This document shows, one piece after another, positions 32,609 to 60,381 of a DNA stretch of 64,000 nucleotides. Both the position numbers and the translations under genes were made by a program. Location: positions 1 to 64,000 of the IMG/VR virus record IMGVR_UViG_3300014656_000001, one strand, 5' to 3'. The notes beneath the pieces were generated by a model that saw only the letters and a list, made by a program, of their open reading frames with translations, was not told where the DNA came from and did no database searches. Position 1 is the stretch's first letter; every line of letters starts with the position of its first letter. Source of the DNA: a virus (lineage: Duplodnaviria; Caudoviricetes).

Positions 32609-33649
32609 TTATGTAAGGGATGTAGCTGACATGTCAGCTACTTCGTTAAAGAAGTATCCCAAATCGGCACAAATTACGTCTTGTGTCCATGCCGATTCGA
32701 TTTCATGGCGGTCGCTCTTGATGTTTTCCATACGGAACGTGCTGGTACGGGAACCATTAACACCAGCACCCGTGTACCCATTCCATTCGAAAGTAACACC
32801 AGCTGTGGGTTCGAGAATAAGACTGCCAGGATTCGAATAGCACAGAAGAGCATGTTTGCCAGCGATAAACGAGTGTGAAGCCGTCTGACCCTCATTGGCA
32901 GTGTTCTTGATTGCATCAGCAACCAAAATTTGATCCACATTAAAGAGAGCCGCCAGATCACTGTTATCGGCTTGTGCAGGTCCACCTGGGGTCTGGCCGT
33001 ATTTCAAACGATCAATAACTTCAGGGTGAAGACGAAGGGCATCATGCACTTCAGCACCAACCACCAGAATGTTAGGAGCGTATCCCGTCAATTCTTTAAC
33101 AGTGCGCTTTGCATTGAGTATGTCTTTGATGGGAGTACTGGCGGCATCATTCCATTTTACTGAAACGTCTTTGTCAGTCGTCCAAACACTGGTAGTGAAG
33201 AAAGTTTCCATCCAATCGATTTCACGGCGAAGAAGATCAACCATCGCTAAAAATCGGGCAATGGATTGTTCGTTACGAAATTCGACATCGTAGTTTGCCA
33301 ATACCTGGTCGTCCATATCAACGTGGAACGCATACACTTCAGCAAAGTACAAAGTCTGTGTGGGGGCAATCCCACCACCCGCTGATTCAGTTGCAGGTGC
33401 TCGTTTTTTCATCAAATCGAGATTGAACTGACCTGCATCCCATTTGGGGTAGTAGTTTGCTTGCTTGTCTACGGGAACTCCTGGAAAGACTTTGTTAGCT
33501 ACAAAACCCTCCAGGCTTTGAAAATTGGCAATCACCAAATTAGTCATCAGCCGATTGATATGGACATCGGAAGGAGTTGGTGTTGCGCGTTTGACGGGAG
33601 CAAGGGCTTTCGCTAAAGCTGCTTGCATGATTTGTGAATTGTTACCCAT
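32609..33649 (-). CDS. major capsid protein
   Basis: 346 aa, ANKVFPGVPVDKQ, WNDAASTPIKDI, PNILVVG (gpE/HK97-like); position. Confidence 0.88.
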   Translation of the reverse strand: MGNNSQIMQAALAKALAPVKRATPTPSDVHINRLMTNLVIANFQSLEGFVANKVFPGVPVDKQANYYPKWDAGQFNLDLMKKRAPATESAGGGIAPTQTLYFAEVYAFHVDMDDQVLANYDVEFRNEQSIARFLAMVDLLRREIDWMETFFTTSVWTTDKDVSVKWNDAASTPIKDILNAKRTVKELTGYAPNILVVGAEVHDALRLHPEVIDRLKYGQTPGGPAQADNSDLAALFNVDQILVADAIKNTANEGQTASHSFIAGKHALLCYSNPGSLILEPTAGVTFEWNGYTGAGVNGSRTSTFRMENIKSDRHEIESAWTQDVICADLGYFFNEVADMSATSLT

Positions 33650-35657: not shown

Positions 35658-36635
35658 TTACACAACCTTGTAAATCAGACGACACCTACAGTTCACGACC
35701 TCCTCAGGAGGTGCGTTGGGATCGCGTGGGTAACGTAATAAATTCCCTCTTGGAGTCTTAAATGGCTGGTCTATTCCCACCCCATCTTTATTCAATTTAG
35801 GCATCCCTTTATGTGACCACCTCGTTCTTTCATCCAAAGTAGCCACCCAAAATCTCAACAGTTCCACCTGCATACTCCCCTCATCATACGCCTGTTTCAG
35901 AGATTCAAACTCACCCATGGATATAGCTCTCATCGCTTCGGTACGTGCCACAGTCTCAGCCCTGTACTTCAACGTTCTCTCTCTGTATCTGTCCACCATC
36001 TTATCGATCTTCTCTTGAGAGATTGGTTTGTCTTTCTTTTTGGCACTGGACAGCAGTTTGTCAAATCTCTTGTCTCTAAGGGTGTTTTTCAGAGCAGATG
36101 ATATGTCTCCCGATTCCAACGATGCCCGAAAATTACTGACCGCCTGATTCTGTATTTGTGTCAATCCAATACTATCCCGTATATCCCTTGCGGCTTTGAT
36201 TGGATTGACACCCGCAATAATATTAGCCTCTAACTGATCCACAACAACCTTTCTAGTTCCCATGGATATATCACTGACCAGACGCACATAGTGATTCTTG
36301 AACTCCCGAATGACACCCTGATCCAGCATATCAAATGTGTAAGTCTCCAGAATTGCCTTTTTGGGAAGTTGGCCGATCACAGCCCTCCCTCCCTCAGCTA
36401 CGGCATCAATCAGAGTGTCCCGAATCTCTTTCCCAATAATCTTCTCCAAATCACCCAGTTTTGCCAGAACAGCAGATATACCTCCAGTAACAATCAACCC
36501 TTCCAACTCTGACAGGATTATACCGCTCTTGATTTTTTCAAAAGCGGCAAGAAGCCCTTGTTCGATCTTAGGTTCGTACTTGGACGCAATCCTATCCAAA
36601 TGATCTGTTGTGTCTGACTTATTCAGGTTTACCAT
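35658..36635 (-). CDS. head morphogenesis protein (SPP1 gp7 / Mu F-like)
   Basis: RAETVARTE, W.ATLDERTR..H, NCRC. Confidence 0.9.
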   Translation of the reverse strand: MVNLNKSDTTDHLDRIASKYEPKIEQGLLAAFEKIKSGIILSELEGLIVTGGISAVLAKLGDLEKIIGKEIRDTLIDAVAEGGRAVIGQLPKKAILETYTFDMLDQGVIREFKNHYVRLVSDISMGTRKVVVDQLEANIIAGVNPIKAARDIRDSIGLTQIQNQAVSNFRASLESGDISSALKNTLRDKRFDKLLSSAKKKDKPISQEKIDKMVDRYRERTLKYRAETVARTEAMRAISMGEFESLKQAYDEGSMQVELLRFWVATLDERTRWSHKGMPKLNKDGVGIDQPFKTPRGNLLRYPRDPNAPPEEVVNCRCRLIYKVV

Positions 36636-38040
36636 TAGGCACTCCCATTATTGGAGGCTTATTCGCCTGTGTCTCTTTAATCTCTAATTCTTTGTGAGAA
36701 GGTACTATGTAATCGTTTACGGGGTTCTTATCGGGGAATCCCGCCCGAGCTCTTACGTGGGCTTCCAAATCGTCATCGGGGAATATGGGCATTCCAGCAT
36801 CACCCAGATTCTTAACTGCTTCAGATAGTTCGAGAACGTTTTCTGGATCAACTTTACCGTACTGCATTTTAGGCATAGTGATTCTATCGAATCCATTAAT
36901 ATCAAATAATGCGGGGATGATTCTTCGATTGAAAACAGCCGCTATGATACTCAACCACCCTTCCAACGCATTCATGAAGATGGAAGATTTGTCTCTGGAA
37001 AGGGCTTGTGATCCCCTCTCACCAACACCAAGCATCACCCAATCAGCCAGCACACTACGGCATATCCCTCTCGAATGACGATCCAGTACAGCCCCCGTAT
37101 CAATCGTTCGTGTGCCAGAAGACGCCATTAGCTTAAAATTCACCTTCTTCACATCACTAATCTTTCCCTCAGCATCAATAAATGTATCAGAGGGAATGAC
37201 AACCCCTGCTTGCTGATTGATTCGAACGTTCTTCACTAAATTCACATACGTCTGTACCACAGCTATATCAGCTGCGGCAGTTGACTTTAATAACTCATCA
37301 GGTAATTCAACAATAGGCAAACCCGTCAATTCACGTTCCACCCCAATTGCTTCAATCATTTCCAAACTCTTCTTGAAATGATATGCTTTATAAGCACTTC
37401 GAAGAGCCGATTTTCCTTCTGGGTTGTTCTTTGTATATTTAGACCTGAACAAAACACAACGATCCATGGGAAGAAATATATCTCCCATCCCATAAGGGGG
37501 TGTTTGATACGCTCCAATCACTTCATCCCCATGAAAAGCCCATTTATGGATAGTGTCTTGTGATCTGGGAGCCAGATTTCTAAGTCCAATTTTCCCGTCA
37601 TCATAAGCACTTCTGAACCTCGGGTCGCTCTGTTTGATTCCCTTACGACGTTTATAGATAATCTCAAACAGGGAAAATCCAAATGGAATCATACTCAAGA
37701 CCTCAACCACAAAGTCTTCCAGTGACACATCCATGTCTTTGAGCACTTCCCGTACAAACTCAGCTTTATCTTCGTATTCTGGATTCGATCTATAATCTTC
37801 ATCCACCACCACAGTCCATGGAACAGACCTGATTGTCATCTCAATAGCAAAGATGACAGAGCCAACAGTCTCATCTGATTCCATCATCTCTTTATACATC
37901 TTGGCGGCTTTTACCCCTTGCAGGTCTGGCTGGTACTCTTCCATGATGTACCCGCTACTTTGTTTCAGACCTGTTACCCCCAAAGGCATTCCTATCTTGT
38001 TATTCACGGCTTTCTTCACTAAATGCTTTGTTCTGGGCAT
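36619..38040 (-). CDS. portal protein (DUF935 / Mu gp29-like)
   Basis: GFSLFEIIY, NPEGKSALR..Y..Y.FK, IGVERELTGLP. Confidence 0.88.
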   Translation of the reverse strand: MPRTKHLVKKAVNNKIGMPLGVTGLKQSSGYIMEEYQPDLQGVKAAKMYKEMMESDETVGSVIFAIEMTIRSVPWTVVVDEDYRSNPEYEDKAEFVREVLKDMDVSLEDFVVEVLSMIPFGFSLFEIIYKRRKGIKQSDPRFRSAYDDGKIGLRNLAPRSQDTIHKWAFHGDEVIGAYQTPPYGMGDIFLPMDRCVLFRSKYTKNNPEGKSALRSAYKAYHFKKSLEMIEAIGVERELTGLPIVELPDELLKSTAAADIAVVQTYVNLVKNVRINQQAGVVIPSDTFIDAEGKISDVKKVNFKLMASSGTRTIDTGAVLDRHSRGICRSVLADWVMLGVGERGSQALSRDKSSIFMNALEGWLSIIAAVFNRRIIPALFDINGFDRITMPKMQYGKVDPENVLELSEAVKNLGDAGMPIFPDDDLEAHVRARAGFPDKNPVNDYIVPSHKELEIKETQANKPPIMGVPNGKPE

Positions 38041-38054
38041 AATAATCTCTCCTT

Positions 38055-39668
38055 TTACATAACCGGGCCTGATACAACGGGAACTCCATCAGGTTTATCT
38101 ACAAATTTTGTTTTATACGTCATTTCATCCTTATTATATCCTACAACCATTTTGTCAGACTTTCCCATTAAAATTTCAGGGGAACCCGCCACGCCATGTT
38201 GATTCCCCATTTTCTCAAGCAGTCTGATTTCATGGAACGCTCTGGAACTGGCATCCACTTGATCCAGAAATTTACCGTTAGGGAACGATCCACACTCATC
38301 CAAATAAATCTCATTCCATACATCTTTCACAATGAAAACATTCCCAATTTCAACCTGAGCTGCAAACGACTGAGCACGTATTTCTTTATCCCCCGATTCC
38401 AATGAGGTGCGTATTGGGTATCCCGCCAGCATAGTTTTCAAATGTTGAGCCGATAACTTGCCAGCAGATGCAGGGTCTTGGGGGAACGACTGAAGCCTTA
38501 CATGATGACCTTCATCATCGGCATCAACAATCGCTTTGATCTTAGCCTCAAGAGCACCTGGGGTAAGACGAAAACGGCAAACGTTTATGATATAGTATTT
38601 CCCTTCAACCTTCTTAATTAAAACACCACACGTCCACGCAGCTCTCTTATCAGAACTTGCCGCCAAGTCCCATCCCCTCACGATAATACCTCCAGAAGGC
38701 ACTTTATCATAAGTAATTTCTTTGAACCACTTGGGATCGAACATCCCCCCTTGACGGGGAGCAGGTCTCTGCTGAAGCTGTCCCGCCGCCGCATACACCC
38801 CCATGGCATCTTCCAGATTCTTTACCTCACGTTCTCCAAACTTCTCTTCCCATATCAACTCCCCATCAATCTCTCTGGGGTCTTCTGGATGGACGTAAGG
38901 GTGATCGTATTCGTATTTACATGGAAGTACCAGATGTTTGTAACCTACTTTAATCATCTCCCCCGCCAAATCTTCCTCATGCACTCTCTGTTGGATGATA
39001 ATCTTTACACCTGTCTTTGCATCATTCAAACGGGTGGAAACAGCTTCTTTCCACCATTCGACAGTGGATCGTCTAACAGATTCTGATTCCCCTTCTACTA
39101 CATTGTGTGGATCATCTACGATGAGAAAATCACCGCCCTCTCCCGTAACCGAACCTCCAACAGATGCGATTGTACGATACCCTTGTTTTGTTGTTTCATA
39201 CCTGCGTTTCTGATTCTGGTCGTCAGCCAGTTCAACGATATCTCCCCATCTCTCCCTGAACCAATCAGACTCAATTAACCTGCGACACTTCACACTGTCG
39301 CGCTCACATAAGTTTAATGCGTAAGAGAAAAAGAAAAACCTAATGGAAGCGTCTTGTATCCAACACCACACAGGAAACAAAACTGCTACTATGGAAGATT
39401 TACAGTGACGGGGAGGTATATTAATAACTAACCTTTTTATTTCCCTGCGGTAGCATTTTTCGAGGTATTTACAAATCAATTTAATATGCCAACCGTCAGC
39501 GAAAGGTGCTGGGTCGATTGCCGGCCAAGTCAGTCTCACGAAATCATGAAATGACCTTTTCCCCAATTCACGATCAATGCTAACCTCATTCAGCATATTA
39601 TGAGTGTTCTTTTCACTGTCCAGCATCAAGTGTCTATCGCTATTCAGCGTATTTTTAGTTCTGGGCAT
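38055..39668 (-). CDS. terL: terminase large subunit
   Basis: INIPPRHCKS, IVDDPH, RGWDLA, DQVDASS; start taken at MPRTK. Confidence 0.95.
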   Translation of the reverse strand: MPRTKNTLNSDRHLMLDSEKNTHNMLNEVSIDRELGKRSFHDFVRLTWPAIDPAPFADGWHIKLICKYLEKCYRREIKRLVINIPPRHCKSSIVAVLFPVWCWIQDASIRFFFFSYALNLCERDSVKCRRLIESDWFRERWGDIVELADDQNQKRRYETTKQGYRTIASVGGSVTGEGGDFLIVDDPHNVVEGESESVRRSTVEWWKEAVSTRLNDAKTGVKIIIQQRVHEEDLAGEMIKVGYKHLVLPCKYEYDHPYVHPEDPREIDGELIWEEKFGEREVKNLEDAMGVYAAAGQLQQRPAPRQGGMFDPKWFKEITYDKVPSGGIIVRGWDLAASSDKRAAWTCGVLIKKVEGKYYIINVCRFRLTPGALEAKIKAIVDADDEGHHVRLQSFPQDPASAGKLSAQHLKTMLAGYPIRTSLESGDKEIRAQSFAAQVEIGNVFIVKDVWNEIYLDECGSFPNGKFLDQVDASSRAFHEIRLLEKMGNQHGVAGSPEILMGKSDKMVVGYNKDEMTYKTKFVDKPDGVPVVSGPVM

Positions 39669-40398
39669 TATCCACCATCTCTTCCACAATATCGGGAGCC
39701 ACTTCTTGCATCTCGATCATATCGGCCTCTGTAAATGATGCCTTCTCAAACGAAATCTGATCGAGCTTCCCGTTTGCCTTCGCAGACATGTCTTTCAATG
39801 CTTGCAACTCTTCAGTAGAAAATTTGGACATATCCAGATGGACGTGTTTATGGGTGTTCATCTCCAGTTTTTCGGCATTACGTCTCCACCTCATACCGTT
39901 ACGGTTACACAAGAAGAAAATGATGGCGCGGGTGTCTGGAGGAAAGTACATTTCTTCTTCAGTTTCAATTCTCTCGGTATACGTTAATACCTCACCGTGA
40001 TCGTCCAGCACGGGCATACCTGACTTATCAGTAACGACTTTGGTTTTTGCAATGCTCTTCTCAATCGTCTTGGAGTAACCTACAGCCCTTGTTCTCAACG
40101 CACTCTCAACAACTTCAGTATCATATATATCCCTGCCAGCCTTCAACGCTTTGCTAAATCTGGGATGCTTATTCTTCCAGACAGATATGACTCTTTCTTT
40201 CACTCCAAATATCATGGCTAGATCAGGTATTGTTGCTCCCATACGGGAACATACACGAAAGGCGAGTTTTGGATGTAATTCATCATCATAGACACTATGA
40301 GACAGCTTATCCAAAGCAGACCTCATTTCATACCTATTCAAAGCTCCTTCGAACTCATCCAGGTCTAGTTCAGCAGGTTTTTCCAGTGTTCTTGGCAT
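39655..40398 (-). CDS. terS: terminase small subunit
   Basis: HTH (GAT..DLA..FGV..ISVWKNKHPRF..ALKAGR), VESALR.RAVGY, PPDT.AIIFFL.NR; GGAGG RBS. Confidence 0.85.
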   Translation of the reverse strand: MPRTLEKPAELDLDEFEGALNRYEMRSALDKLSHSVYDDELHPKLAFRVCSRMGATIPDLAMIFGVKERVISVWKNKHPRFSKALKAGRDIYDTEVVESALRTRAVGYSKTIEKSIAKTKVVTDKSGMPVLDDHGEVLTYTERIETEEEMYFPPDTRAIIFFLCNRNGMRWRRNAEKLEMNTHKHVHLDMSKFSTEELQALKDMSAKANGKLDQISFEKASFTEADMIEMQEVAPDIVEEMVDNAQN

Positions 40399-40424
40399 AA
40401 CTAAATCCTCCACTTTCCTCCATC

Positions 40425-40618: not shown

Positions 40619-40777
40619 ATGAGCAAGGAAACTAATGGCATAACCAGTAAACAAGCAAACTCGATAAAATGGATACTCGCCTCTATTGCCTGTGCACTCT
40701 TTAGTATTGTGTGCTTTATACTGTCCACTATACTCTTTTCAATCGCTCAGGGATTACGAGAAGCCGGGAGCATGTGA
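40619..40777 (+). CDS. small membrane protein
   Basis: GGAG RBS, one TM helix. Confidence 0.5.
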   Translation: MSKETNGITSKQANSIKWILASIACALFSIVCFILSTILFSIAQGLREAGSM

Positions 40778-40796
40778 ATCTATATTGGAGAAAAAA

Positions 40797-41213
40797 ATGA
40801 ATAAAAAAGACTTATCACCACTTGGCACAAATAGTAAAACTAACAGAGGTTTTGGATTGATCGAATTTCTTGATGAATATGGAAAAAAATGCAGTCTGCA
40901 AATCAGTTCACGCGCTGTGTGTGAAAATGATGATGGTACAGTTGATGACCCTCTTGGTTGGATATGGCTTGGAATTGATGATCCAGAACCAAAAATCATG
41001 AAAACAAAAGCACAAAAAATTGGTATGGCATTACCTCCTGGAGAAGTCAGTGGATGGATGCCGTATCCAATACCCGATGATGTATTGATACACACAAGAA
41101 TGCACCTCAATGAAACACAAGTGCGGGGTTTGATAGAGAGGTTACAAATATGGCTCGAAACTGGAACATTTACAGAAGAAACAGGAGAAACGAATGAAAA
41201 AGTTACAAGTTGA
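40797..41213 (+). CDS. hypothetical phage protein
   Basis: GGAG RBS before MNKKDL. Confidence 0.6.
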   Translation: MNKKDLSPLGTNSKTNRGFGLIEFLDEYGKKCSLQISSRAVCENDDGTVDDPLGWIWLGIDDPEPKIMKTKAQKIGMALPPGEVSGWMPYPIPDDVLIHTRMHLNETQVRGLIERLQIWLETGTFTEETGETNEKVTS

Positions 41214-41445
41214 ATACCAAAACTCACCGGGAAATTTTCCTAAAACACCCATCTACACCAATACGCAATGTGAAAAATGTGGCGATCTTAATCGTATACC
41301 TGGGTTGGAATACATCGGCCCTGTATATAACACGTTCGATAAAACCAAAATCAATGAACCTGAGGTAATGAAAGTAACATGCAGGCGATGTGGTTATATT
41401 GCCTATATGTCTCCCATTCAACCACGGGAGGAAACGAATGAATAA
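41194..41445 (+). CDS. Zn-ribbon-like hypothetical protein
   Basis: CEKC...CRRC. Confidence 0.55.
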   Translation: MKKLQVEYQNSPGNFPKTPIYTNTQCEKCGDLNRIPGLEYIGPVYNTFDKTKINEPEVMKVTCRRCGYIAYMSPIQPREETNE

Positions 41446-41698
41446 CAACGTGCAATATGTCCCCATCGTCTTTCGCAAGGGGTTTTGGTTATCATGCGGG
41501 AATTACACGTCTGATATCAACCAAGCCATCGAATACGCTCAGAATTACGCCAAGAAAGAAAACGCAATAACTGGAGTCAGATACAAACGGGGAAACGTTG
41601 TTGTGGACAAAAGAGTGGATGAACAGGGTTTTCTCCACACTCACACACCCTCAGACATGCCAATTAAAGCCCCATACAGCCCCGCTACAGGCATTTAA
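41438..41698 (+). CDS. hypothetical protein
   Basis: GGAGG RBS before MNNNVQ. Confidence 0.55.
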   Translation: MNNNVQYVPIVFRKGFWLSCGNYTSDINQAIEYAQNYAKKENAITGVRYKRGNVVVDKRVDEQGFLHTHTPSDMPIKAPYSPATGI

Positions 41699-41734
41699 GG
41701 GAGCAACACACACATAAGCACTGGAGAATAAAAG

Positions 41735-42067
41735 ATGAAACCTGACTTTGACGTTACTCTCTCTTTGAAAAGTCCCATAAACAGCATTGCTGAGCTCTGG
41801 AAAAAGTTTGACAGGGAGATGCTGACACTCATTCAATTGGAAGTCAGTGATTCTGTGTTTCGAACCATCCAAAACGATATACGAATAATGATACAAGATT
41901 TTGGCCTCAATCTCAGTACATATTCAGTGAGACGTATTGTTATGGAGGTGTTTGGTGTTTTAATCAAACGCATAGTCCCTCCCCACAAAGACCTCCATGA
42001 CAAAACATTCACAGCGCATTATAAAGCAGGTATACACCACTACGAGGTACAAGGAAAAATTGTATAA
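41735..42067 (+). CDS. hypothetical protein
   Basis: GGAG RBS, 110 aa. Confidence 0.55.
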   Translation: MKPDFDVTLSLKSPINSIAELWKKFDREMLTLIQLEVSDSVFRTIQNDIRIMIQDFGLNLSTYSVRRIVMEVFGVLIKRIVPPHKDLHDKTFTAHYKAGIHHYEVQGKIV

Positions 42068-42110: not shown

Positions 42111-42140
42111 GCCCTCTACACCTCCAGAGGGCATTTTTTT
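42111..42140 (+). terminator. intrinsic terminator
   Basis: gccctct-acacctcc-agagggc followed by T7. Confidence 0.75.
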
Positions 42141-43706
42141 ATCTAAAAATTATACCATTATTGCTTACCTCGATCGATTCCCCGTACAGATGCTTATATA
42201 GTGAGCAAAACTATTTACCTGCCTGGATCGATGCCCAGTGCCCAAACTTTGAAAATAATTGGGTGTGGCTGCCCCCTACTACACAAGACGTTTTCGGGTT
42301 TTTCATTCTCTATCAAATCTATAGACTGTGTAGACTAATAAACGGTTACTCTACTTAGTCTATAGAGTAAGTAGGGCGGTTGTGCGTGTGTATGGGTGTT
42401 TGGGTATGGGTGACTGTGGCTGGCGTTTCAACGTTTCATGAACATCTATTCATTCCATCTATCTATCCATATCCAAGTAGATTGAAATGGACATCTATTC
42501 ACTAGAGAGAGTATGTACCCATAGAACGTTCTGTATCATGCATCTACTTGGATATGGATATCTATATGCTTTGTTGTCTGGTATCCATCCCAGTCTACTA
42601 TCCAAAGTATAGCTAGAACGCTTTCTAATACTCTATGTGACAACTTTATTGAGCTGTCAGTCATTTCTACTCTTAATCGGCTTTGAATCGCTTATATGTG
42701 ACGCATGGTAAACCTCTCTACTTAGTCTATAGAGTAAGTAGAGAGTGAGAAGTAATTGCACAATATGGGTAAACTTTGCTCACTCTCTAGTGAATAAGTA
42801 GAGTATGCTTTATATTCTTTATATTTATAGACTTATGGAAGCAGGTAGTATGGGTGTAGTATAATAGCGGGCAAATGTTGCGCAAGTTTACATAATGCTT
42901 AGTACATGGGTAGGGATTTATACACTAGATATTGTGTATTTGTCTATGCTTTATATTCTTTATATTGGCATAGTGATTGCTTACAGTATGGGCGTAAGTC
43001 AAATCTGACTTACAGTTCTTTGATAACTCTCCAAACCACTAGTATCAAGCAATCCAGACGCTAGTCTTGAGATTAACTATCTCACATAGCAGAATATCAA
43101 TACGCTATGGGATGATTGAGCGCAAAGCTCAATCTCTCTCTTTATGCTCTCCAGCAAGAGCCGGCTAAATGCCCCATATTGAGAGATTCGTGATTGACTT
43201 GAGAAAGTGACCACTATTCCCATTTACGCTAAAAAACACCAAATGTTTAACAGTGTGAATCTCTCTCAGAGATTAATCATTGGAAATGGGAATATGAAGC
43301 GATTCCATTCACTCCAGAGATTAATGAAAATCTCGATATACTGGAATCCAATAGACTATATGCGTAAGAACTATAGTCTATGATATTTGACAATCTAACT
43401 TCTATTTATCGAACGATTCGAAGAATCTATGAGATTCACTATTCGTGCGATAGTTGTCACAGCTGGACTTGACAATAAGATACCCAATAGATAAATAGAC
43501 TTCCCTGTATATGTAGTAGCATAACTGGCTAGCAAGCTACCCTACTACAAATTATAATGAATAGCACATTTGAATATTCTCTTCTCTTCTCTTTCTCTAG
43601 CAAAGAGAGAGAAGATATTGCATTATTGTAGTATCTTCTCTCTAATTGCCATTCCAAGCGATAGTTTGGAATGAGTAAAATTAGAGAAAAGAGAGAGAGT
43701 AAAAAA

Positions 43707-43988
43707 ATGAACGATAAGAGAAAGAAATTAGATTCGTACGAACTATACAGAATAGCAAGCGATATGCTTTTGAGCTATTCTGAAAGTGATTCGATTGAAG
43801 CTCTTGCAAGAGTGAAACAAGATACCACTTTGGCAATCACAATGGCCCGTCAGTCATTTCTTGCACACTATTCCAATCGCGCTAGCAAACGTTCGTTAAA
43901 TACTATTGCTAATATAGTATTTGACGTTCACTTGTTTGATTCGATTCCCAATAGTGAAGCATTGTTTTCTACTCCATGTATTATGTAA
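43707..43988 (+). CDS. early-type hypothetical protein
   Basis: Follows the AGAGAAAAGAGAGAGAG leader. Confidence 0.6.
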   Translation: MNDKRKKLDSYELYRIASDMLLSYSESDSIEALARVKQDTTLAITMARQSFLAHYSNRASKRSLNTIANIVFDVHLFDSIPNSEALFSTPCIM

Positions 43989-44072
43989 TATCAAAAAGAC
44001 TATACAAAATTACTTGTATAGTCCATTGATACTATATAGTATCTAAAACCAAAAGAGAAAAGAGAGAGAATC

Positions 44073-44450
44073 ATGAAAACAAAGCAAGATGGTAGAAGTG
44101 GACAGTATATTCGTGATGATAATGGCAAAGTGGTAAAAGGCGCGCTTACTTATCGTAAGGGTACCCAAGCCGATTTTATCAGTGAAATGCTGATATTGGG
44201 AAATACGATTGAGAATATCACTAATGAGCTGATTAAATATTTCGGCTTCAAAGCTGCCGATTACAAAAAGTATTATCGGCGCGTATATGGACATATAAAG
44301 CACATCGAAGCGAAAAACATGAACATGGAAACACCCATGTTCAAAATTCAAAAAAACGTAAAAACGAGAGTTATCAAAATTACACCAGTGAAGAAATACG
44401 TTCGTGAATACGTCAAGAATGAAATGCCAAATTGTGTAATTGCATTCTAG
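44073..44450 (+). CDS. basic early-type hypothetical protein
   Basis: Hairpin 43998-44023 plus leader. Confidence 0.6.
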   Translation: MKTKQDGRSGQYIRDDNGKVVKGALTYRKGTQADFISEMLILGNTIENITNELIKYFGFKAADYKKYYRRVYGHIKHIEAKNMNMETPMFKIQKNVKTRVIKITPVKKYVREYVKNEMPNCVIAF

Positions 44451-44544
44451 TTTGGCATACTAACGATACTACACAATAAATAACTATTGTGTAGTATATT
44501 AGTATTAAAGAAGTAAAAACTAAACAAGAGAAAAGAGAGAGACT

Positions 44545-44859
44545 ATGCTAATTTATGCACTAACAAAAAAAGAATCATTAGACTTGGCTACTGAATTAAT
44601 GTGCTCTGACTTAACGATTGAAAATCCCTATGCTATGGAATGGTTTGAACATCATTTTCTGTTGGTGGAAAGCAATGAAAATTACATGTTCATACCACGT
44701 ACAAGTGAAGTAGCCGAAATAGTACAATCTACTATAGATGAATACTATAGCGATGTGTTGGACAATGTCACATTCAATACAGAATGTGATCATATAGAGA
44801 TATTCCACTATCTCTATACCAATCTCAAAAAAGCTGAATTGACTATTCCAATTAATTAA
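44545..44859 (+). CDS. acidic early-type hypothetical protein
   Basis: Hairpin 44466-44497 plus leader; D/E-rich. Confidence 0.6.
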   Translation: MLIYALTKKESLDLATELMCSDLTIENPYAMEWFEHHFLLVESNENYMFIPRTSEVAEIVQSTIDEYYSDVLDNVTFNTECDHIEIFHYLYTNLKKAELTIPIN

Positions 44860-44943
44860 ATTGTAACACTAGTGAGAGCTCTTGCTATCGATTCAAGAGC
44901 TCTAATTAGTCGTACAATACTATAGAGAAAAGAGATAGAGAAT

Positions 44944-45180
44944 ATGAGAGAAAAAATATACGTAGTATCAAATAATCACGATTCAAAGCGATTTATTCAA
45001 AAAGCAAGTAATGGAATAATCGCCATTCAGAAAGCATTTGGAAACTCACATTACCATGATAGCTATCAATGCAATCCAGCAAAAAAAGCTCAATACGCAA
45101 AGTATATCCAAGTAGATAATTCTACTCTGCAATCAAAGCAAAGTGGAATAGTCTATCACTCTGAATTACAAGTGTATTAA
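44944..45180 (+). CDS. early-type hypothetical protein
   Basis: Hairpin 44875-44903 plus leader. Confidence 0.55.
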   Translation: MREKIYVVSNNHDSKRFIQKASNGIIAIQKAFGNSHYHDSYQCNPAKKAQYAKYIQVDNSTLQSKQSGIVYHSELQVY

Positions 45181-45617
45181 TTGCATTATTGTAGCTCTAT
45201 ACTTTACTATTTCTATCAATTAAGTGAAGTATAGAGCTATTCGTTTATTCTACTTAATCTATAGATTAAATAGACTTCTATACTCTATTTAGTCTATAGA
45301 TTAAATAGAGTATTCTGTACTACAGAGATAAGAGGGGAGATAAACTAAATGTAGTATGATTCCCTATAAGAATCCCTATAAAATTGAAATCTCAAAGCTC
45401 TGTAAAAAGAGAAAACGGATTACAAAACGGATTGAAAGAGAGAACGGATTATGGAACACATTATCACAGTTTTCTTAACCATATTCATCATTGTATGGTT
45501 AAGAAACGAACACAAAACGGATTAATAGATTCAAACAAGAACTGATAAACAAAACGGATTATCAGTTCTATTGAGTTTATTACTCAACAACAAAACAGAG
45601 AAAAGAGGAGAGAGACA

Positions 45618-45914
45618 ATGAAAAAAGTAGTACTAAACTATGAGATTGTAAATCACGGAATTGACAACGAACAATACTTTTCAGGATGCGGAACATCATT
45701 CACGGAGTTTGATCGTGTCGTTACTGGAATGGGACAGACGGAGCAGGAAGCATTCGATGACGCTATGGAATGCTTGTACGAATCGGAAGACGGACTGGAA
45801 GTATGCAATAGACTTGAAAGAGAAAAAGGAACACTGAGAACAGAACACGGATGCGACATAGAAGGATTACACTGCTATGTCTCCATACGGTACAATTTAA
45901 TGCAATTATCTTGA
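45618..45914 (+). CDS. acidic hypothetical protein
   Basis: Cassette leader; D/E-rich. Confidence 0.65.
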   Translation: MKKVVLNYEIVNHGIDNEQYFSGCGTSFTEFDRVVTGMGQTEQEAFDDAMECLYESEDGLEVCNRLEREKGTLRTEHGCDIEGLHCYVSIRYNLMQLS

Positions 45915-45996
45915 TATTGTCACATAAGACTGATAACGGATAACGTTGTCGGTCTTGGTGAAGTATCAAACTAACAGAGAAAAGAGGAGAGATATT

Positions 45997-46293
45997 ATGT
46001 TACATGTACGTACAAATAATCAGAAAAGACAAATTGAAGACGGTGAGAACGGAACCAATGGATTCACGTATAAAAAGTATTTCTACAATTTCGCTGACTT
46101 CATTCTCACAGAAACAGGTTCTGAATTGCATAAAGCAGGTTGGTATGGATTACAACCGGCTACGATGGGATCAGGTGTCTGTGTGAAATTCCCGGATGAT
46201 GAACCACAAGGATCTTGTGAGAACATCATTGTAGGTTGGTTCTGGTACACTTCTGAAGTGATGGATGAAATGGAAAAAGAAGGTGTGCTATGA
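45997..46293 (+). CDS. hypothetical protein
   Basis: Start reassigned to the ATG after the leader. Confidence 0.6.
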   Translation: MLHVRTNNQKRQIEDGENGTNGFTYKKYFYNFADFILTETGSELHKAGWYGLQPATMGSGVCVKFPDDEPQGSCENIIVGWFWYTSEVMDEMEKEGVL

Positions 46294-46523
46294 ACGATAA
46301 GTTTATGGTTTGTTTATGGTTTGTTTGTATCGATTATCATAGCGGACAGTGGTCAAGAGGATACGAATTGCAATGCAGGTTGATGAAAAGGATCACACGC
46401 ATTGCAAGACTGAGAAAGGTTCCCTTTTTCGTATTCACTGAAGCTACTTTCTTCAAGGGAAACGGATACAACAATGATCCACTGTACCAGGAACTGGCAA
46501 AAAGGTTTGGAGATGAATTGTAA
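46290..46523 (+). CDS. hypothetical protein
   Basis: ATGA overlap; DYHSGQWSRGY. Confidence 0.55.
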   Translation: MNDKFMVCLWFVCIDYHSGQWSRGYELQCRLMKRITRIARLRKVPFFVFTEATFFKGNGYNNDPLYQELAKRFGDEL

Positions 46524-46614
46524 ATTCTAATTTCAAGAAAGAACTGATAACTGATAAAAGGTTGTCAGTTCTGTTGAGAGTAGAATACAAAACAGAGAAA
46601 AGAGGAGAGATATT

Positions 46615-46953
46615 ATGAAAGTACACCAGGATAAATATACAAAATATTTAGATTTATTTGAACTGGACAAAAACGGAACAGAATTATCTGAGATGAAGGT
46701 GGGACAGAGATATCTAGGATACAGCGGAGATATCTATGTTATCACAGAACAGACTCCAGGAATCACAGAATGTCATGTATACGGTAACAGAAAAACACTG
46801 TATACGTTCTCAAGCAATTCTAAAGGATATCCATTAGTTCCCAAAACGGATATCGTGAAAGAGATTGCCGAAAAGAACGGATTCACTGTATTGGATATCC
46901 AATGCGGTGAAGTTGAACCTAAAGACATACGAGGATTGCCCACTGTTGAATGA
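46615..46953 (+). CDS. hypothetical protein
   Basis: Cassette leader. Confidence 0.6.
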   Translation: MKVHQDKYTKYLDLFELDKNGTELSEMKVGQRYLGYSGDIYVITEQTPGITECHVYGNRKTLYTFSSNSKGYPLVPKTDIVKEIAEKNGFTVLDIQCGEVEPKDIRGLPTVE

Positions 46954-47040
46954 TGAATAAGACTGGTAACGGATCAATCGTTATCAGTCTAGTTGGTTAT
47001 TCAACTAACCTACAACAAGAGAAAAGAGGAGAGAAATATC

Positions 47041-47913
47041 ATGGCTAATTTGCAACAGAAAGCAATCATGGTGAAAAAGACGGTTACCACTTGGACTTCC
47101 AGTATCACGGATAAGTCTGAGTCACAGAAGGTCGCCAGTGACAATGACACTACAACAAATAGCGTTACAGTCACAAAGAGGTTGATTGCCCGTTCTCACA
47201 TGGACGGAATCAACAAGACGGTTTCAAAAATCAACACGTTATTCAAAGCAAAAACAAAACCGTTTCTTGACGGTGGCTGGAATGTCTGTTCGATTGAGGA
47301 TTGGCCTGAGCTCAGAAAGGAACTCACTGAGTTGAAAGATGAGTTCGAAAAAGAGGTTCAGGACTTCTGCAATCGCTATGACACTGTGCGTAACGCTGAA
47401 GTATCCAAGCTGGGAAAGCTTGGACATGAAAGCGAATATCCAACGAAGGAACAGATTTCACATCGGTTCCAATGCGGATTCGCTGTGCTTCCACTTCCCA
47501 GTGTGAATGAGGATTTCAGAGTAGGAAATTCCGACGCTGAAAATGCCGAGATTCGCAAAGAGGTTGAAGCGACTGTGAAATCAGCAATTGGCAACACTGT
47601 TACTTCAGGATTGAAAGAAATGACGGAAGCCCTGAAGCGATTGCAAGAGAAGTTCAAGACGGTTCCAAAAAAGGTTCACGAATCGATTATTGGGAACGTT
47701 GAGGAACTCTGTGAAGTACTTCCGAAGTTGAATATCGCGGGGGATCCTGCACTGGACAAGATGATGCAGGAGATCAAAGAGAAAGTATGCAAGTACGGTA
47801 CTTTCGGATTGAAGGGTGAGACGGAGCGCGCTACGAAAGCGCGTGAAGAGGTTGTGACGGCCAGTGAGGAATTGGTAGCACAGATCGAGGAACGCATGGC
47901 TGGATATTATTAG
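47041..47913 (+). CDS. DUF3150-like helical protein
   Basis: TKPFLDGGW.V, YP..E.I..RF, LPKLNIAGDPAL; precedes the AAA/vWA pair. Confidence 0.6.
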   Translation: MANLQQKAIMVKKTVTTWTSSITDKSESQKVASDNDTTTNSVTVTKRLIARSHMDGINKTVSKINTLFKAKTKPFLDGGWNVCSIEDWPELRKELTELKDEFEKEVQDFCNRYDTVRNAEVSKLGKLGHESEYPTKEQISHRFQCGFAVLPLPSVNEDFRVGNSDAENAEIRKEVEATVKSAIGNTVTSGLKEMTEALKRLQEKFKTVPKKVHESIIGNVEELCEVLPKLNIAGDPALDKMMQEIKEKVCKYGTFGLKGETERATKAREEVVTASEELVAQIEERMAGYY

Positions 47914-47994
47914 TCAACAGAAGACTGATAACGGATTATTGTTATCGGTCTTCGTGGATTAATAAACCCAATAAAGAGAAAAGAGGAGAGAACA

Positions 47995-49014
47995 ATGAAA
48001 CAATCGGAACTGAAACAAGCGATTCAGGATGCCCGCGTACTTATGGAATCGGTATTCGTATGGGGCGCACCAGGTATTGGAAAGTCAGCTATTATTTATC
48101 AGCTGTCTTGTATGCTGGACATACTTTTCAAGGATGTTCGGGTGTTGTTACTTGACCCGACTGACTTGAAAGGATTTCCCGATCCATTTAACGGTGATAC
48201 TGTGAAGTGGAAAGTACCTGACTTTTGGCCGAAAGACGGTGAGGGGATTATTCTTCTCGATGAATTGAATCTCGGTTCAAAGATGGTACAGGATGCTTGT
48301 TACCAGCTGATACACGATAGAAAAGTAGGAGATTATGAAGTTCCTGCCGGCTGGACTATCGTAGCTGCTGGAAATCGAGAGACTGACGGATGCGGTGTTA
48401 AGCGTCAATCAGCTGCTCTCGCAAGCAGGTTCATCCATGTGACACTGGATCATGAAACTGAGGAATTCAAAGCAGAATTTCTCAAGTACGCACGGGAGAA
48501 CGGATTCCATCCCATTGTTCTCGGTTACTTATCTGTCAACAAAGCTGCCATATTCAAATATGACAAAACAGCGTTGACGTTTGCTAACCCAAGAACGTGG
48601 GAGAAGGTATCGAAGATGTGCAAACTGTTTGAGAACGGTGATCGCACTGATTCATACAAGCGGCAGATGTTTCAAGGTTGCGTGGGGGAAGGTGAAGGAA
48701 ACAACTTCTTTGATTTTTATAAGAACTGTTTAACTCTTCCCAATCCCAAACAAATACTGAAAGATCCTGTTGGCACTTGGCCGGTGGACAGCTCGTTCAG
48801 CACTTCACCCGAAAAAATGGGACAGCTCTACATGGTATGCACCGCGTTAGCCAGACTGGTTGACAAGAGCACTATTGACAATATGACGGTGTTCTTGAAT
48901 ACACTTCCCATGCGGGAGTTCGGAACGTTCACTATGGAGGATGCTATTGCACAGCATCCTGAACTGATGAAAACGGATGCTTACATCCAGTGGCAGAGTA
49001 AGATAGCTGCTTGA
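47995..49014 (+). CDS. MoxR-like AAA+ ATPase
   Basis: WGAPGIGKS, LLDELN, AAGNR, LASRF, NPRTWE. Confidence 0.9.
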   Translation: MKQSELKQAIQDARVLMESVFVWGAPGIGKSAIIYQLSCMLDILFKDVRVLLLDPTDLKGFPDPFNGDTVKWKVPDFWPKDGEGIILLDELNLGSKMVQDACYQLIHDRKVGDYEVPAGWTIVAAGNRETDGCGVKRQSAALASRFIHVTLDHETEEFKAEFLKYARENGFHPIVLGYLSVNKAAIFKYDKTALTFANPRTWEKVSKMCKLFENGDRTDSYKRQMFQGCVGEGEGNNFFDFYKNCLTLPNPKQILKDPVGTWPVDSSFSTSPEKMGQLYMVCTALARLVDKSTIDNMTVFLNTLPMREFGTFTMEDAIAQHPELMKTDAYIQWQSKIAA

Positions 49015-49098
49015 TTCAAAGAGACTGATAACTGATAATAAGAGGTTATCAGTCTACTTGAGTTTAGCAACACAAAATGAGAAAAGAGGAGAGAACAA

Positions 49099-50265
49099 AT
49101 GAAAGCAATAGATAAAATATTCAAAGCTCGTGAACGTTTGATTCTCAGTACCGTATTCTTCGGTGCTCTGTGTATTCGATTGATCCCTAAAGAGGATACT
49201 TCTTGCGATACGGCTTGGACGGATGGTATTCATATTGGATACAATCCCAAGTTTATTGAGACGTTGTCGATGGCTCATTTAGTCTTCGTTCTTGCCCATG
49301 AAGTCCTCCACTGTGTCTTCAATCATCACACAAGAAGGAACGGACGTGACGCTAAGAAGTGGAACGTAGCTTGCGATTATGCTATCAATATCATTCTTAC
49401 CGATTACGGATATACGTTATTAGAAGGTGCTCTGTATGATGAAAAATATCGAGGTATGGATGTTTATGAAATCTACAGGGACTTATACGGTAACGATATG
49501 AATGATGATGATGGAGATCAGCAATCAAAAGGATCAAGTGATCCTGGTGAATGCGGTGAAGTGAGAGACTTCCCAGAAGAAGACGGTGAAGAATCTAAAA
49601 GTGAAAACGAGCAGAATTGGAAACAAGCTTCCATCAAAGCGCAGGAAATGGCTGAGAGGAAGGATGAGAAGGTTAATTCCAGAATTAGTGACGCTATCTA
49701 CGGTTACAAAAATCCTAGAACTGACTGGCGTTCAGTACTGAATGAGTTTTTGACAGAACAGATAAACGATGATTACACATTCACAACTCCTAATCGCCGT
49801 TACTTGGCTCATAAATTGTATATGCCAGGTATGGACGGGGAGCAGATGAAGGAAATGGTGTTCATCGTGGACACTTCGGGTTCTGTCAAGACTGATATGC
49901 TGAACCAGTTCTGGACAGAGATCAAAACGGTACTGGAACTGTTTGATGAAGTGAAAGTAACCATTCTTCATGTTGACAACGTGTTGAGCGGGGTTGAGGT
50001 ATTGGAACCCCACGATGAGAAACCTGAAACTCTAGTTCCAAAAAGCACGTATGGAGGAACTGATTTTCGACCTGGTTTCGAATGGATTGAAGAAAATGAA
50101 ATTGATCCAGGATGCGTTATTTACTACACAGACGGTATGTGCCGTGATTACCCGCAAGAACCTGATTACCCCGTACTTTGGGCGAAGTTCGCTACAGAGT
50201 GGGACGGTATGTTAAAATTCAATCCACCCTTCGGGCAGGTAGTGCCTGTTGATTACGTGGACTGA
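49099..50265 (+). CDS. DUF2201-type metallopeptidase plus vWA domain protein
   Basis: TAWTDG, HEVLH (HExxH), WNVACDYAIN, VDTSGS MIDAS, GGTDF, YYTDG. Confidence 0.9.
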   Translation: MKAIDKIFKARERLILSTVFFGALCIRLIPKEDTSCDTAWTDGIHIGYNPKFIETLSMAHLVFVLAHEVLHCVFNHHTRRNGRDAKKWNVACDYAINIILTDYGYTLLEGALYDEKYRGMDVYEIYRDLYGNDMNDDDGDQQSKGSSDPGECGEVRDFPEEDGEESKSENEQNWKQASIKAQEMAERKDEKVNSRISDAIYGYKNPRTDWRSVLNEFLTEQINDDYTFTTPNRRYLAHKLYMPGMDGEQMKEMVFIVDTSGSVKTDMLNQFWTEIKTVLELFDEVKVTILHVDNVLSGVEVLEPHDEKPETLVPKSTYGGTDFRPGFEWIEENEIDPGCVIYYTDGMCRDYPQEPDYPVLWAKFATEWDGMLKFNPPFGQVVPVDYVD

Positions 50266-50369
50266 TTGCAGTATCTCTCTCAACTCTCTTTATGCTGTCA
50301 GTGAGCAATGGGGTTCACTGGCAGTAATGGATAGTTGAAACACAAAATGAGAAAAGAGGAGAGATTATT

Positions 50370-50648
50370 ATGAAAAGACTAAAAACCCAATATGTGGAAA
50401 TCCTGCAGAGAGCCATTGATTCTCAATGGGGGGATTTCAAAAAGTTCACACAGAATAAAAAGATTGATTTCATCTTCTGTGATGAAAATGAAGAAACAAA
50501 GTTCACGTTCGGAAAAGGTGCCTGGATTAATTTGTTCTTCAGTGTACAAGGACATCGTGTAGAACAGGATTGGAAGGTGACTCCATTTATGGATGGAGAT
50601 GAGATTAAGGTTGAGTTTTACAGAAAATCGGAAACCGAACCTAATTGA
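50370..50648 (+). CDS. hypothetical protein
   Basis: Cassette leader. Confidence 0.6.
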   Translation: MKRLKTQYVEILQRAIDSQWGDFKKFTQNKKIDFIFCDENEETKFTFGKGAWINLFFSVQGHRVEQDWKVTPFMDGDEIKVEFYRKSETEPN

Positions 50649-50728
50649 TATCTCATAGAGAACAGGTAACGGATTATTGTTATCTGTTCTAATGAAGTAT
50701 CAAATCTGAGAAAAGAGGAGAGATTATT

Positions 50729-51457
50729 ATGAAAAGAAAAGAAGCAATAGAGCTACTAAAAACAAATGTTTCAGCATGGAATCAATACAGAATCGACAAT
50801 CCATCTTGGATTCCTAATTTGCGAGGGGCTAATTTGCAAGATGCTGATTTGCGAGGGGCTGATTTGCGAGAGGCTGATTTGCAATGGGCTAATTTGCAAG
50901 ATGCTGATTTGCGAGGGGCTGATTTGCGAGGTGATAATTTGCAATGGACTAATTTGCAAGATGCTGATTTGCGAGGGGCTGATTTGCGAGGTGCTAATTT
51001 GCGAGAGGCTAATTTGCAATGGGCTAATTTGCAAGGGGCTAATTTGCAAGATGCTGATTTTCGAGGTGCTAATTTGCGAGGTGATAATTTGCAATGGACT
51101 AATTTGCAATGGACTAATTTGCAAGATGCTGATTTGCGAGGGGCTAATTTGCAAGGGGCTAATTTGCAAAAGGCTAATTTGCAAAAGGCTAATTTGCAAA
51201 GGGCTGATTTGCAAAGGGCTTGTTATGGGAAAGGTGTTCCCATTACAAAAGAACCTCTACAAATACACGGATTAATATATTTTGTTTTGGTTATGGACTC
51301 TCACATGAAAATAGGATGTGAATTACATAGCTTTGAAGAATGGCAGAATTTTTCTGATAGAGAAATTCTTACAATGGATAATTCTTCCGCCCTAAAGTTT
51401 TGGAACCAGTATAAGCCCATGTTAATGGGATTATGTAAAACAAGAACCGAGGAATGA
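50729..51457 (+). CDS. pentapeptide-repeat protein 1
   Basis: (A/D)(N/D)LxG repeats; C-terminal MKIGCELHSFEEW domain. Confidence 0.9.
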   Translation: MKRKEAIELLKTNVSAWNQYRIDNPSWIPNLRGANLQDADLRGADLREADLQWANLQDADLRGADLRGDNLQWTNLQDADLRGADLRGANLREANLQWANLQGANLQDADFRGANLRGDNLQWTNLQWTNLQDADLRGANLQGANLQKANLQKANLQRADLQRACYGKGVPITKEPLQIHGLIYFVLVMDSHMKIGCELHSFEEWQNFSDREILTMDNSSALKFWNQYKPMLMGLCKTRTEE

Positions 51458-51481
51458 ATCTGAGAAAAGAGGAGAGATAAA

Positions 51482-52753: not shown

Positions 52754-52816
52754 AAAAAATTACACAGAAGAAGATTTACAGCGGTGTACAGAAGAAGCCA
52801 GGACGGGAGAACAATT

Positions 52817-53566
52817 ATGAATAAATTACGAACATTGGAATTATTAATGGAAATTGCGGCTTGGAATGCTTATCGCAAAGAAAATCCATATTGGACTCCG
52901 AATCTGAGCGGTGTGAATCTGAGTGATGCGAATCTGAGTGATGCAAATCTGAGTGATGCAAATCTGAGTGATGCAAATCTGAGTGATGCGAATCTGATCT
53001 ATGCAAATCTGAGTGATGCAAATCTGAGTGATGCAAATCTGAGTGATGCAAATCTGATCTATGCAAAACTAAGCAATGCAAAACTAAGCAATGCGAATCT
53101 GAGCAATGCGAATCTGAGCAGTGCGAATCTGAGCAATGCGTATCTGATCTATGCAAAACTAAGCAATGCAAAACTAAGCAATGCAAATCTAAACCGTACG
53201 AATCTGAGCAGTGCGTTTGGGTTATTATCCTCATCTGATTGGTTGAAAGAGAACTTTGATACTTACCACGGCAGAGGATATATAGTGTTCAAGGAGGTAG
53301 ATTTGTATAAATCTACTCCCCCAAAATGGGAATACAAAGGCGGGAATACTCTCGCCGAAACGGTTAATCCTAACCGAACGGATGACTGCGGGTGTGGCAT
53401 CAATTTTGCCACTTTGACGTGGATTAAAAAGAAAAATGTAAGACCTGATTTAGTAATCTGGAAGTGCTTGCTCACCTGGGAGGCACTAGCTGATACTGTT
53501 GTTCCATATAATACGAATGGTAAAGCCCGGTGCCAGAGTTTGCAACTGTTGGAGCGAATCCAATGA
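52817..53566 (+). CDS. pentapeptide-repeat protein 2
   Basis: ANLSD/AKLSN repeats; C-terminal DDCGCGINF...[11 protein letters not shown] domain. Confidence 0.88.
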
Positions 53567-60240: not shown

Positions 60241-60381
60241 TTAGCAACAACGGTCAGCTCTGGAGAGTGCCTGACCGTTGTACTAAAGGCACATTTCAAA
60301 GCCGCACTCTCTTTTCTCTCTCTGCTGTGCCTGGTGTGTGCCATAGGGGAATACTCATCACGTTATTGGTGGGTATTCCCC
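60241..60381 (+). ncRNA. candidate structured RNA / leader of the replication operon
   Basis: 10-bp stem caacggtcag/ctgaccgttg, ggcaca/tgtgcc stem, 15-bp hairpin 60346-60381, possible 8-bp pseudoknot gagagtgc/gcactctc. Confidence 0.5.

Follow-up and report, generated by a model that had tools for sequence, protein, structure and literature searches.

A palindrome-bounded 3-kb island purged of AGG/CCT in a siphovirus genome, possibly the signature of a modification-free leader

A few restriction sites, 6-bp or bipartite, are known to be avoided in the phage DNA that enters first (T5, Murciavirus). In T5, only the first-entering DNA is open to attack by EcoRI or CRISPR, and it is by nature free of EcoRI sites (bioRxiv 10.1101/866236; record AY587007.1). 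In Autographiviridae (Murciavirus against the Type I restriction-modification system Mme2I; the T7 early region with Ocr), the motifs of the first-injected region alone decide the outcome, and the leading regions are variable and carry anti-defence genes (PMC12455610). Short words are also read by the DpdA enzymes that place 7-deazaguanine in phage DNA: these act at 2-3-nt words, namely GA and GGC in CAjan (PMC7544227) and GA in iggy (PMC10484667), and phages with DpdA3, in which QueC is absent, replace all guanines (PMC10516641). Here we analyze a phage of siphovirus type without close relative, IMG/VR record IMGVR_UViG_3300014656_000001 (79,903 bp, a circular assembly whose ends overlap by 123 bp), of which bases 1-64,000 constitute the window. 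This genome contains an island of 3 kb from which a three-letter word, AGG/CCT, has been purged about six-fold.

The size of the deficit was first estimated by hand in an earlier note on this DNA, and its counts hold: 42380-45330 contains 8 AGG/CCT sites, and the 600-bp stretches before and after it contain 17 and 8, respectively. For 2000 dinucleotide-preserving shuffles of 42380-45330, we obtained a mean of 48.8 sites (standard deviation (sd) 5.1, minimum 32), which places the observed count at z = -8.0. The deficit is beyond what base or dinucleotide composition explains, the alternative account that the note itself had named. A likelihood scan located the best low-density interval at 42373-45333 (2,959 bp, 8 sites) with a log-likelihood ratio of 30.4, and the runner-up elsewhere reached 7.8. 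Ranked by length, the top four gaps without AGG/CCT in the genome all lie within the island, one after another, and the density there is 2.7 sites per kb as compared to 18.7 per kb outside. When every trinucleotide is compared over every 3-kb window of the genome, AGG/CCT in the island is the top outlier: after dinucleotide correction, its observed/expected ratio (O/E) is ~0.17-0.18, while the next-lowest word, CAG/CTG, stands at 0.57, a depletion about three times that of any other word. In phage Seurat we found no comparable hole (minimum O/E 0.54), and among 696 kb of unrelated viral and metagenomic loci (943 windows; 28,936 window tests) no value fell below 0.25, the lowest being 0.29, for CTA. 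Intergenic regions outside the island have an AGG/CCT O/E of 0.80; the purge is therefore a property of the island block and not of control DNA generally, which rules out that all control DNA avoids AGG. Five of the eight surviving sites read AGGG/CCCT (p about 0.06), which is suggestive of AGGG being tolerated in the island.

Both strands contribute equally to this deficit. It extends over coding as well as non-coding DNA, as the note had claimed, and affects both alike. Within 42380-45330, AGG was observed 4 times against a dinucleotide-corrected expectation of 25.4, and CCT 4 times against 23.3. The non-coding part (42380-43670) accounts for 2 AGG (13.9 expected) and 3 CCT (14.5 expected), and the gene part (43671-45200) for 2 AGG (10.3 expected) and 1 CCT (8.2 expected). 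Such symmetry between the strands suggests that selection acted on duplex DNA. In 42720-45330, GAGG/CCTC is absent altogether while 81 TGG/CCA remain, again as the note had stated.

The island consists of 1.3 kb of repeat-rich non-coding DNA followed by four hairpin-leader-gene cassettes, with the following features from its left flank to its right flank (positions in the window).

42111-42140, plus strand: intrinsic terminator of the upstream small operon, with a 7-bp stem containing 5 GC pairs and a T run
42308-42374, no strand: left border palindrome pair (degenerate copy at 42308, exact copy at 42349-42374), forming a long hairpin
42374-45332, no strand: AGG/CCT-purged interval, 8 sites against ~49 expected, 4 on each strand
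42380-42430, plus strand: G/T-rich tract directly 3' of the left palindrome, read from the sequence
42456-42568, no strand: 27-nt inverted repeat, 89% complementary, DNA fold z = -4.4
42716-42803, no strand: internal palindrome (exact, 42716-42741) with its degenerate partner at 42786, forming a long hairpin, z = -5.3
42804-42966, plus strand: two exact 22-nt direct repeats, 141 bp apart
43600-43649, plus strand: hairpin before the first leader
43683-43988, plus strand: GG-less leader and gene 1 (43707-43988), encoding 93 amino acids (aa), glycine-free, orphan
44054-44450, plus strand: GG-less leader and gene 2 (44073-44450), 125 aa, isoelectric point (pI) 9.8, winged-helix-like model
44527-44859, plus strand: GG-less leader and gene 3 (44545-44859), 104 aa, pI 4.3, glycine-free, orphan
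44924-45180, plus strand: leader variant GAGATAGAGA and gene 4 (44944-45180), 78 aa, pI 9.4, orphan
45192-45239, plus strand: 17-bp hairpin 3' of gene 4
45248-45308, no strand: right border, a further pair from this palindrome family (45248 and 45283), hairpin of more than 21 bp, with the next AGG 25 bp on
45324-45355, plus strand: leader-like sequence with a strong GAGGGGAG, followed by an ATG-TAG start-stop mini-open reading frame, just beyond the right border
45407-45560, plus strand: five direct repeats of AAAACGGATTA, in a 400-bp gap before the delayed-early genes
45597-45613, plus strand: first GAGGAG-type leader, with nine such leaders up to 51461

The limits of the purge coincide with palindromes. 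A 26-bp near-perfect palindrome, CTCTACTTAGTCTATAGAGTAAGTAG, occurs in the whole genome only at 42308 (degenerate), 42349, 42716, 42786 (degenerate), 45248, and 45283; the copies are paired, and the pairs fold as long hairpins (DNA fold z of -2.8 to -7.0). The purged interval starts in the last bases of the 42349 copy and ends 25 bp past the 45283 copy. The AGG/CCT purge is thus real, strand-symmetric, confined to one block, and sharply bounded by palindromes. A chimeric assembly could be ruled out, as the palindromes on the two sides resemble each other to only ~85% and the island leader is common to the downstream genes. Just outside the right border, the AAAACGGATTA repeats are a candidate binding-site array for a regulator or replication protein. 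Across 40.3-46.5 kb we obtained no Rfam match. A sigma-70 promoter scan gave fewer hits than the shuffle mean and no convincing early promoter.

The purge is encoded at a cost to the genes that carry it. The four island genes have zero AGG codons and zero CCT codons, their prolines being written as CCC and CCA. Of 11 GGN codons, just 1 comes after an A, despite 34% A at third positions, and of 17 xAG codons, just 1 is followed by G, versus 41 of 135 downstream. Glycine is present at 27 per 1000 residues in the island proteins versus 70 downstream, and two of these proteins (43707-43988, 93 aa; 44545-44859, 104 aa) contain no glycine at all, for which the chance is ~1e-6 at the downstream glycine frequency. 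The leaders follow the same pattern, in line with what the note had read from them: the four within the island read AGAGAAAAGAGAGAGA or the variant GATAGAGA, in the form AGAGAAAAGAG-AGAGA and without GG, whereas nine genes from 45597 to 51461 have the GAGGAG-type leader GAGAAAAGAGGAGAGA, in the form AGAGAAAAGAGGAGAGA. Loss of GG from the GAGGAG leader is seen only inside the island, and the island genes have thus given up the GGAG core of the ribosome-binding site. The purge overrides codon choice, glycine content, and Shine-Dalgarno sequence alike.

This division of the leaders could also be accounted for at the RNA level, where the early transcripts would avoid either an AGG/GGAG-specific endoribonuclease or Shine-Dalgarno-like ribosome binding, and where CCT would be lost through transcription of both strands or through pairing stems. 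T4 RegB cleaves GGAG in the ribosome-binding sites of early genes. As in T4, the early genes fall into two classes, one without GGAG in the leader (the island) and one that has it (the next nine, with GAGGAG), and the genes are arranged as hairpin-leader cassettes. Complementarity to the leaders is found on the plus strand at 60307-60319, where it spans 13 nt for the island type and only 11 nt for the GAGGAG type. RegB, however, acts on RNA and would leave a signal on one strand, whereas here CCT is purged as strongly as AGG: sense-strand CCT in the genes was observed once against 8.2 expected (7 at the downstream rate). Because AGG and CCT are equally lost in genes that lie on one strand, both strands would need to be transcribed; antisense promoters are not evident, promoter-like hits falling below the shuffle mean, and a purely RNA-level cause is thereby ruled out. 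After dinucleotide correction, moreover, GGA is undepleted and GAG is enriched in the island, which rules out a general avoidance of Shine-Dalgarno-like words. We therefore regard an RNA-level origin in any form as highly unlikely.

The island also departs from the rest of the genome in its broader composition, and the note's claim of DNA-level motif avoidance stands with this qualification: avoidance of a word on duplex DNA fits the loss on both strands and in coding and non-coding DNA, but the island is at the same time an outlier in GC content, in GG words, and in CTA/TAG. Its GC content is 34.6% as compared to 40.6%, and the island/rest-of-genome ratios of GG words are 0.14 for AGG, 0.32 for CGG, 0.37 for GGG, 0.44 for GGT, 0.50 for GGA, and 0.74 for TGG. 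TGG in the island matches the base-composition expectation, and GGG and CGG are merely ~1.8-fold low, so that a generic NGG protospacer-adjacent motif (PAM) is ruled out as the avoided word. CTA/TAG is 2.9-fold enriched in the island versus the rest of the genome. Genome-wide, CpG (rho 0.68) and TpA (0.72) are strongly under-represented and CTA/TAG is rare; the island shows no avoidance of TpA and CTA/TAG.

Such a composition might suggest that the block came from a donor genome or arose under a different, context-specific mutation bias and has no present function. The low GC and GG/CC content, the CTA/TAG enrichment, and the orphan nature of the four proteins argue for this origin, as does the dinucleotide signature of the island, which deviates more strongly than that of any other part of the genome (delta* 0.19 versus a median of 0.066). 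The island and the nine downstream genes, however, have an 11-nt leader core and the design of their hairpin cassettes in common, which indicates that the island evolved with this genome and disfavors a recent import as well as a chimeric assembly. A donor with a genome-wide AGG/CCT O/E of 0.17 would be unprecedented, given that 0 of 28,936 window tests fell below 0.25, and the boundaries of the island coincide with the palindromes. As compared to the GAGGAG type, the island-type leader has lost one G and shows no G-to-A change, so that G-to-A deamination is ruled out and simple deamination offers no explanation. Overall, we consider a foreign or mutational origin improbable.

The strand symmetry, the equal depletion of coding and non-coding DNA, and the override of codons, glycine, and Shine-Dalgarno sequence together fit the avoidance of a word that is read on duplex DNA. 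We consider it likely, although not firmly established, that the island reflects a DNA-level AGG/CCT purge of a leading or immediate-early module. By analogy with T5 pre-early DNA, the island is probably the part of the genome that must work on incoming DNA, and probably the first to enter. A module that must function on incoming DNA cannot depend on functions that are made later.

The position of the island within the genome was evaluated against the late genes, which run leftward from ~40.45 kb and include the following.

24431-27640, minus strand: tape measure
32609-33649, minus strand: major head protein
36619-38040, minus strand: portal
38055-39689, minus strand: TerL
39655-40413, minus strand: terS

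The island lies 2 kb from the start of the oppositely transcribed terS, heads a rightward early array, and adjoins the largest stretch of repeat-rich non-coding DNA. A small plus-strand operon (40619-42067) lies between terS and the island and encodes a predicted membrane peptide, a zinc-ribbon protein, and three unknowns; this operon has a normal AGG content and GGAG ribosome-binding sites, and it ends at a strong terminator before the island. Packaging usually begins with the terminase genes, and the DNA that goes in last comes out first. With this polarity the island would be packaged last and ejected first, and its position is to this extent compatible with first entry, though it does not demand it. 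Because the assembly is circular with a 123-bp overlap, it yields no termini, and TerL has no relative in the Protein Data Bank and hence gives no hint on the packaging type.

The T5 first-step-transfer (FST) region, to which the note had likened the island, resembles it in architecture. In both cases, a siphovirus has small orphan early genes beside a large untranslated region of palindromes, inverted repeats, and direct repeats, and two paired inverted-repeat elements enclose ~2-4 kb of coding DNA that is poorly conserved. The island is depleted of a short word that the rest of the genome carries (2.7 versus 18.7 per kb). Candidate features of a stop region can be listed as well: 1.3 kb of non-coding DNA with palindrome pairs and the 27-nt inverted and 22-nt direct repeats, and a further 400 bp with a palindrome pair and five direct repeats. 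The analogy does not extend to everything. T5 avoids a 6-bp restriction site and not a 3-nt word; no homologs of A1, A2, or dmp were detected among the four island proteins with Pfam and PHROG; and no DnaA-box array was seen here. Murciavirus differs in a similar manner, as its avoided site is a bipartite Type I site of few copies, while here a trinucleotide expected ~49 times has been removed, along with ribosome-binding sites. The known cases of PAM or restriction-site depletion (PMC4246573) share with the island that a short word is avoided on both strands, but they are genome-wide and mild, whereas here the depletion is confined to 3 kb and amounts to ~6-fold.

Palindrome pairs at both borders could also delimit a direct terminal repeat, from which the trinucleotide of the phage or host primase would be missing, such that 3' tails stay single-stranded for concatemers, or from which the sites of the phage's own nuclease for degrading host DNA would be missing. 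The same repeat at both genome ends would need both strands to be word-free, and the border pairs are similar. A self-nuclease sparing FST DNA has been proposed for T5 A1 (bioRxiv 10.1101/866236). The phage encodes an HNH nuclease and a DnaG-like primase. DnaG-type primases start at specific trinucleotides, but we know of no primase with AGG/CCT specificity, and the 10-kb terminal repeat of T5 has no trinucleotide hole. An origin in replication, packaging, or self-nuclease protection thus appears very improbable.

Returning to a purge of incoming DNA, the question is which reader recognizes AGG. Downstream at 65-74 kb, we found a cluster that encodes QueD, FolE, two QueE-like radical-SAM proteins, an epimerase, a methyltransferase, a glycosyltransferase-like protein, an HNH nuclease, and a DpdA homolog. 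In a scan of the cluster proteins, the matches were GTP cyclohydrolase I (1.5e-62), PTPS (2.7e-25), and two radical-SAM/Fer4_12 proteins. The DpdA homolog (L016:9130-10188) shares 26-29% identity with annotated phage DpdA/TGT genes, with E values down to 5e-22, the identity being 27-29% for DpdA of Vibrio, Pseudomonas, and Seurat-type phages, and it had no Pfam match at E 0.1. A further gene (L016:11707-14430) encodes a family A DNA polymerase with an N-terminal domain of the uracil-DNA-glycosylase superfamily. Since the phage encodes DpdA and 7-deazaguanine synthesis genes, we tentatively favor its own DpdA-type modification as the reader, with AGG as the putative target word. The presence of a DpdA homolog together with FolE, QueD, and QueE matches the known DpdA systems, whose published words of 2-3 nt are of the same size as AGG (PMC7544227, PMC10484667, PMC10516641). 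These papers describe no local word-free island, however, and the present cluster differs in its added sugar-modifying enzymes.

In the scheme that we propose, the block between the palindrome pairs would be a self-contained immediate-early module purged of AGG/CCT. The phage's DpdA-type guanine transglycosylase would insert a 7-deazaguanine derivative at AGG across the rest of the genome, such that the AGG-free island would enter the cell as ordinary DNA, unseen by modification-dependent defenses and freely read by host proteins. The four small island proteins, one of which is a putative winged-helix DNA binder of the flanking palindromes, would then prepare the cell for the remainder. GrwAB, a type IV system, restricts 7-deazaguanine DNA, and phages that escape it inactivate dpdA (PMC12137116); such restriction would give leading DNA a reason to stay unmodified. 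A two-tier genome of this kind, with a plain leader that escapes type IV restriction and a body armored outside the 3-kb module by a (possibly glycosylated) 7-deazaguanine at AGG, is conceivable on these grounds, albeit doubtful.

The reader could instead belong to the host, namely a nuclease of very short specificity or a CRISPR-Cas system with an AGG/CCT PAM that acts on incoming DNA, in which case the module would escape by lacking the word, and its early products, the orphan proteins and possibly also the pentapeptide-repeat proteins encoded downstream, would shield the rest. The strand-symmetric, local, and bounded nature of the purge suits such a reader. So does the precedent of T5, where EcoRI and CRISPR act only on the FST DNA and a pre-early function protects the rest (bioRxiv 10.1101/866236), as well as that of Murciavirus phages, where only the motifs of the leading region matter (PMC12455610). 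PAMs are 2-3 nt long, and cases of phages depleted of PAMs have been described (PMC4246573). Encoded among the delayed-early genes are two pentapeptide-repeat proteins, which are possible DNA mimics, and a DUF3150-MoxR-VWA triad. Several points speak against a host reader: AGG is not the generic NGG PAM, with TGG at the composition level and GGG and CGG ~1.8-fold low; eight sites persist in the island; and the T5 FST region has no such hole. To our knowledge, no restriction enzyme with a 3-bp site exists. Taken singly, a host reader is rather unlikely, yet it carries similar weight to the phage's own modification and is nearly as probable.

A number of observations weigh against a leading module that the phage's own modification spares. 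The first 24 kb of T5, including the FST region, contain no trinucleotide hole (minimum O/E 0.53-0.63), so that the likeness to T5 concerns the palindromes, the inverted repeats, and the ~3 kb of orphan genes and not the word purge. The distinct dinucleotide signature of the island described above counts here as well. Two cultured phages that encode DpdA lack an island free of the published words: Seurat, a relative of CAjan, has no GGC- or GA-poor island, and none was found in Variovorax phage VPv62. QueC was not found among the cluster proteins that were scanned, these being part of the open reading frames of the genome, and a QueC-less pathway resembles that of the DpdA3 phages; if all G were replaced, word-specific reading would fail. 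In addition, unmodified coding DNA, beyond protein-binding sites, would seem to be needed only if a modification-dependent nuclease were the threat. VPv62 does display a mild dip in GGC/GCC (L140:38000-38800; 10 per 800 bp versus a mean of 35, sd 7), which is far milder than the island.

None of the four island proteins belongs to a Pfam or PHROG family, and exhaustive searches gave no relatives: the gene 3 protein matched only itself, and the gene 2 protein gave one weak match (E 8e-5). The structural model of the gene 2 protein (predicted local distance difference test score 74) shows a helix-helix-helix-strand-strand order, as in a winged-helix topology, and its neighbors are nearly all winged-helix DNA binders, but with Z scores of just 5.0-5.5 and a root-mean-square deviation of 2.4-3.6 over 66-80 residues, and with Foldseek E values of 0.1 or worse. 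On this model, the gene 2 protein is plausible as a putative winged-helix binder of the flanking palindromes.

Beyond the island, at least nine genes with the conserved leader extend from 45.6 to 51.5 kb. The triad follows directly after the small early genes (47047-50265) and comprises a DUF3150 protein, a MoxR ATPase, and a DUF2201 metallopeptidase/VWA protein. The two pentapeptide-repeat proteins lie at 50729-51457 and 52784-53566, and the second of their genes holds the longest AGG/CCT-free gap outside the island (52800-53229). Farther downstream are a sigma factor, an SNF2 helicase, Ro60, and the DnaG-like primase, and no tRNA was found in the window. The locus stands apart in sequence databases: a blastn search of the island against 50,697 phage records gave no match, IMG/VR yielded no relative for either the MoxR ATPase or DpdA, and the leader motif returned only single chance matches in IMG/VR and metagenome contigs. 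The nearest TerL among 5.8 billion proteins shares 56% identity, and for the ATPase the best match reaches 44%.

The glycine-free proteins and weakened ribosome-binding sites that the purge has cost point to very strong, position-specific selection by a three-base reader. If this reader is the phage's DpdA, the target word of the enzyme would be revealed by sequence alone, and hypermodified phages would keep an unmodified leader, which bears on modification-dependent defenses. If the reader is a host system, the island would mark the leading DNA, and its four orphan proteins would be candidate anti-defense genes. Local word purges could in either case serve as a sequence-only way to locate leading regions and defense targets in uncultured phages. 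The island is possibly the signature of a modification-free leader, and with it, leading-region target avoidance may be seen here in a new form.

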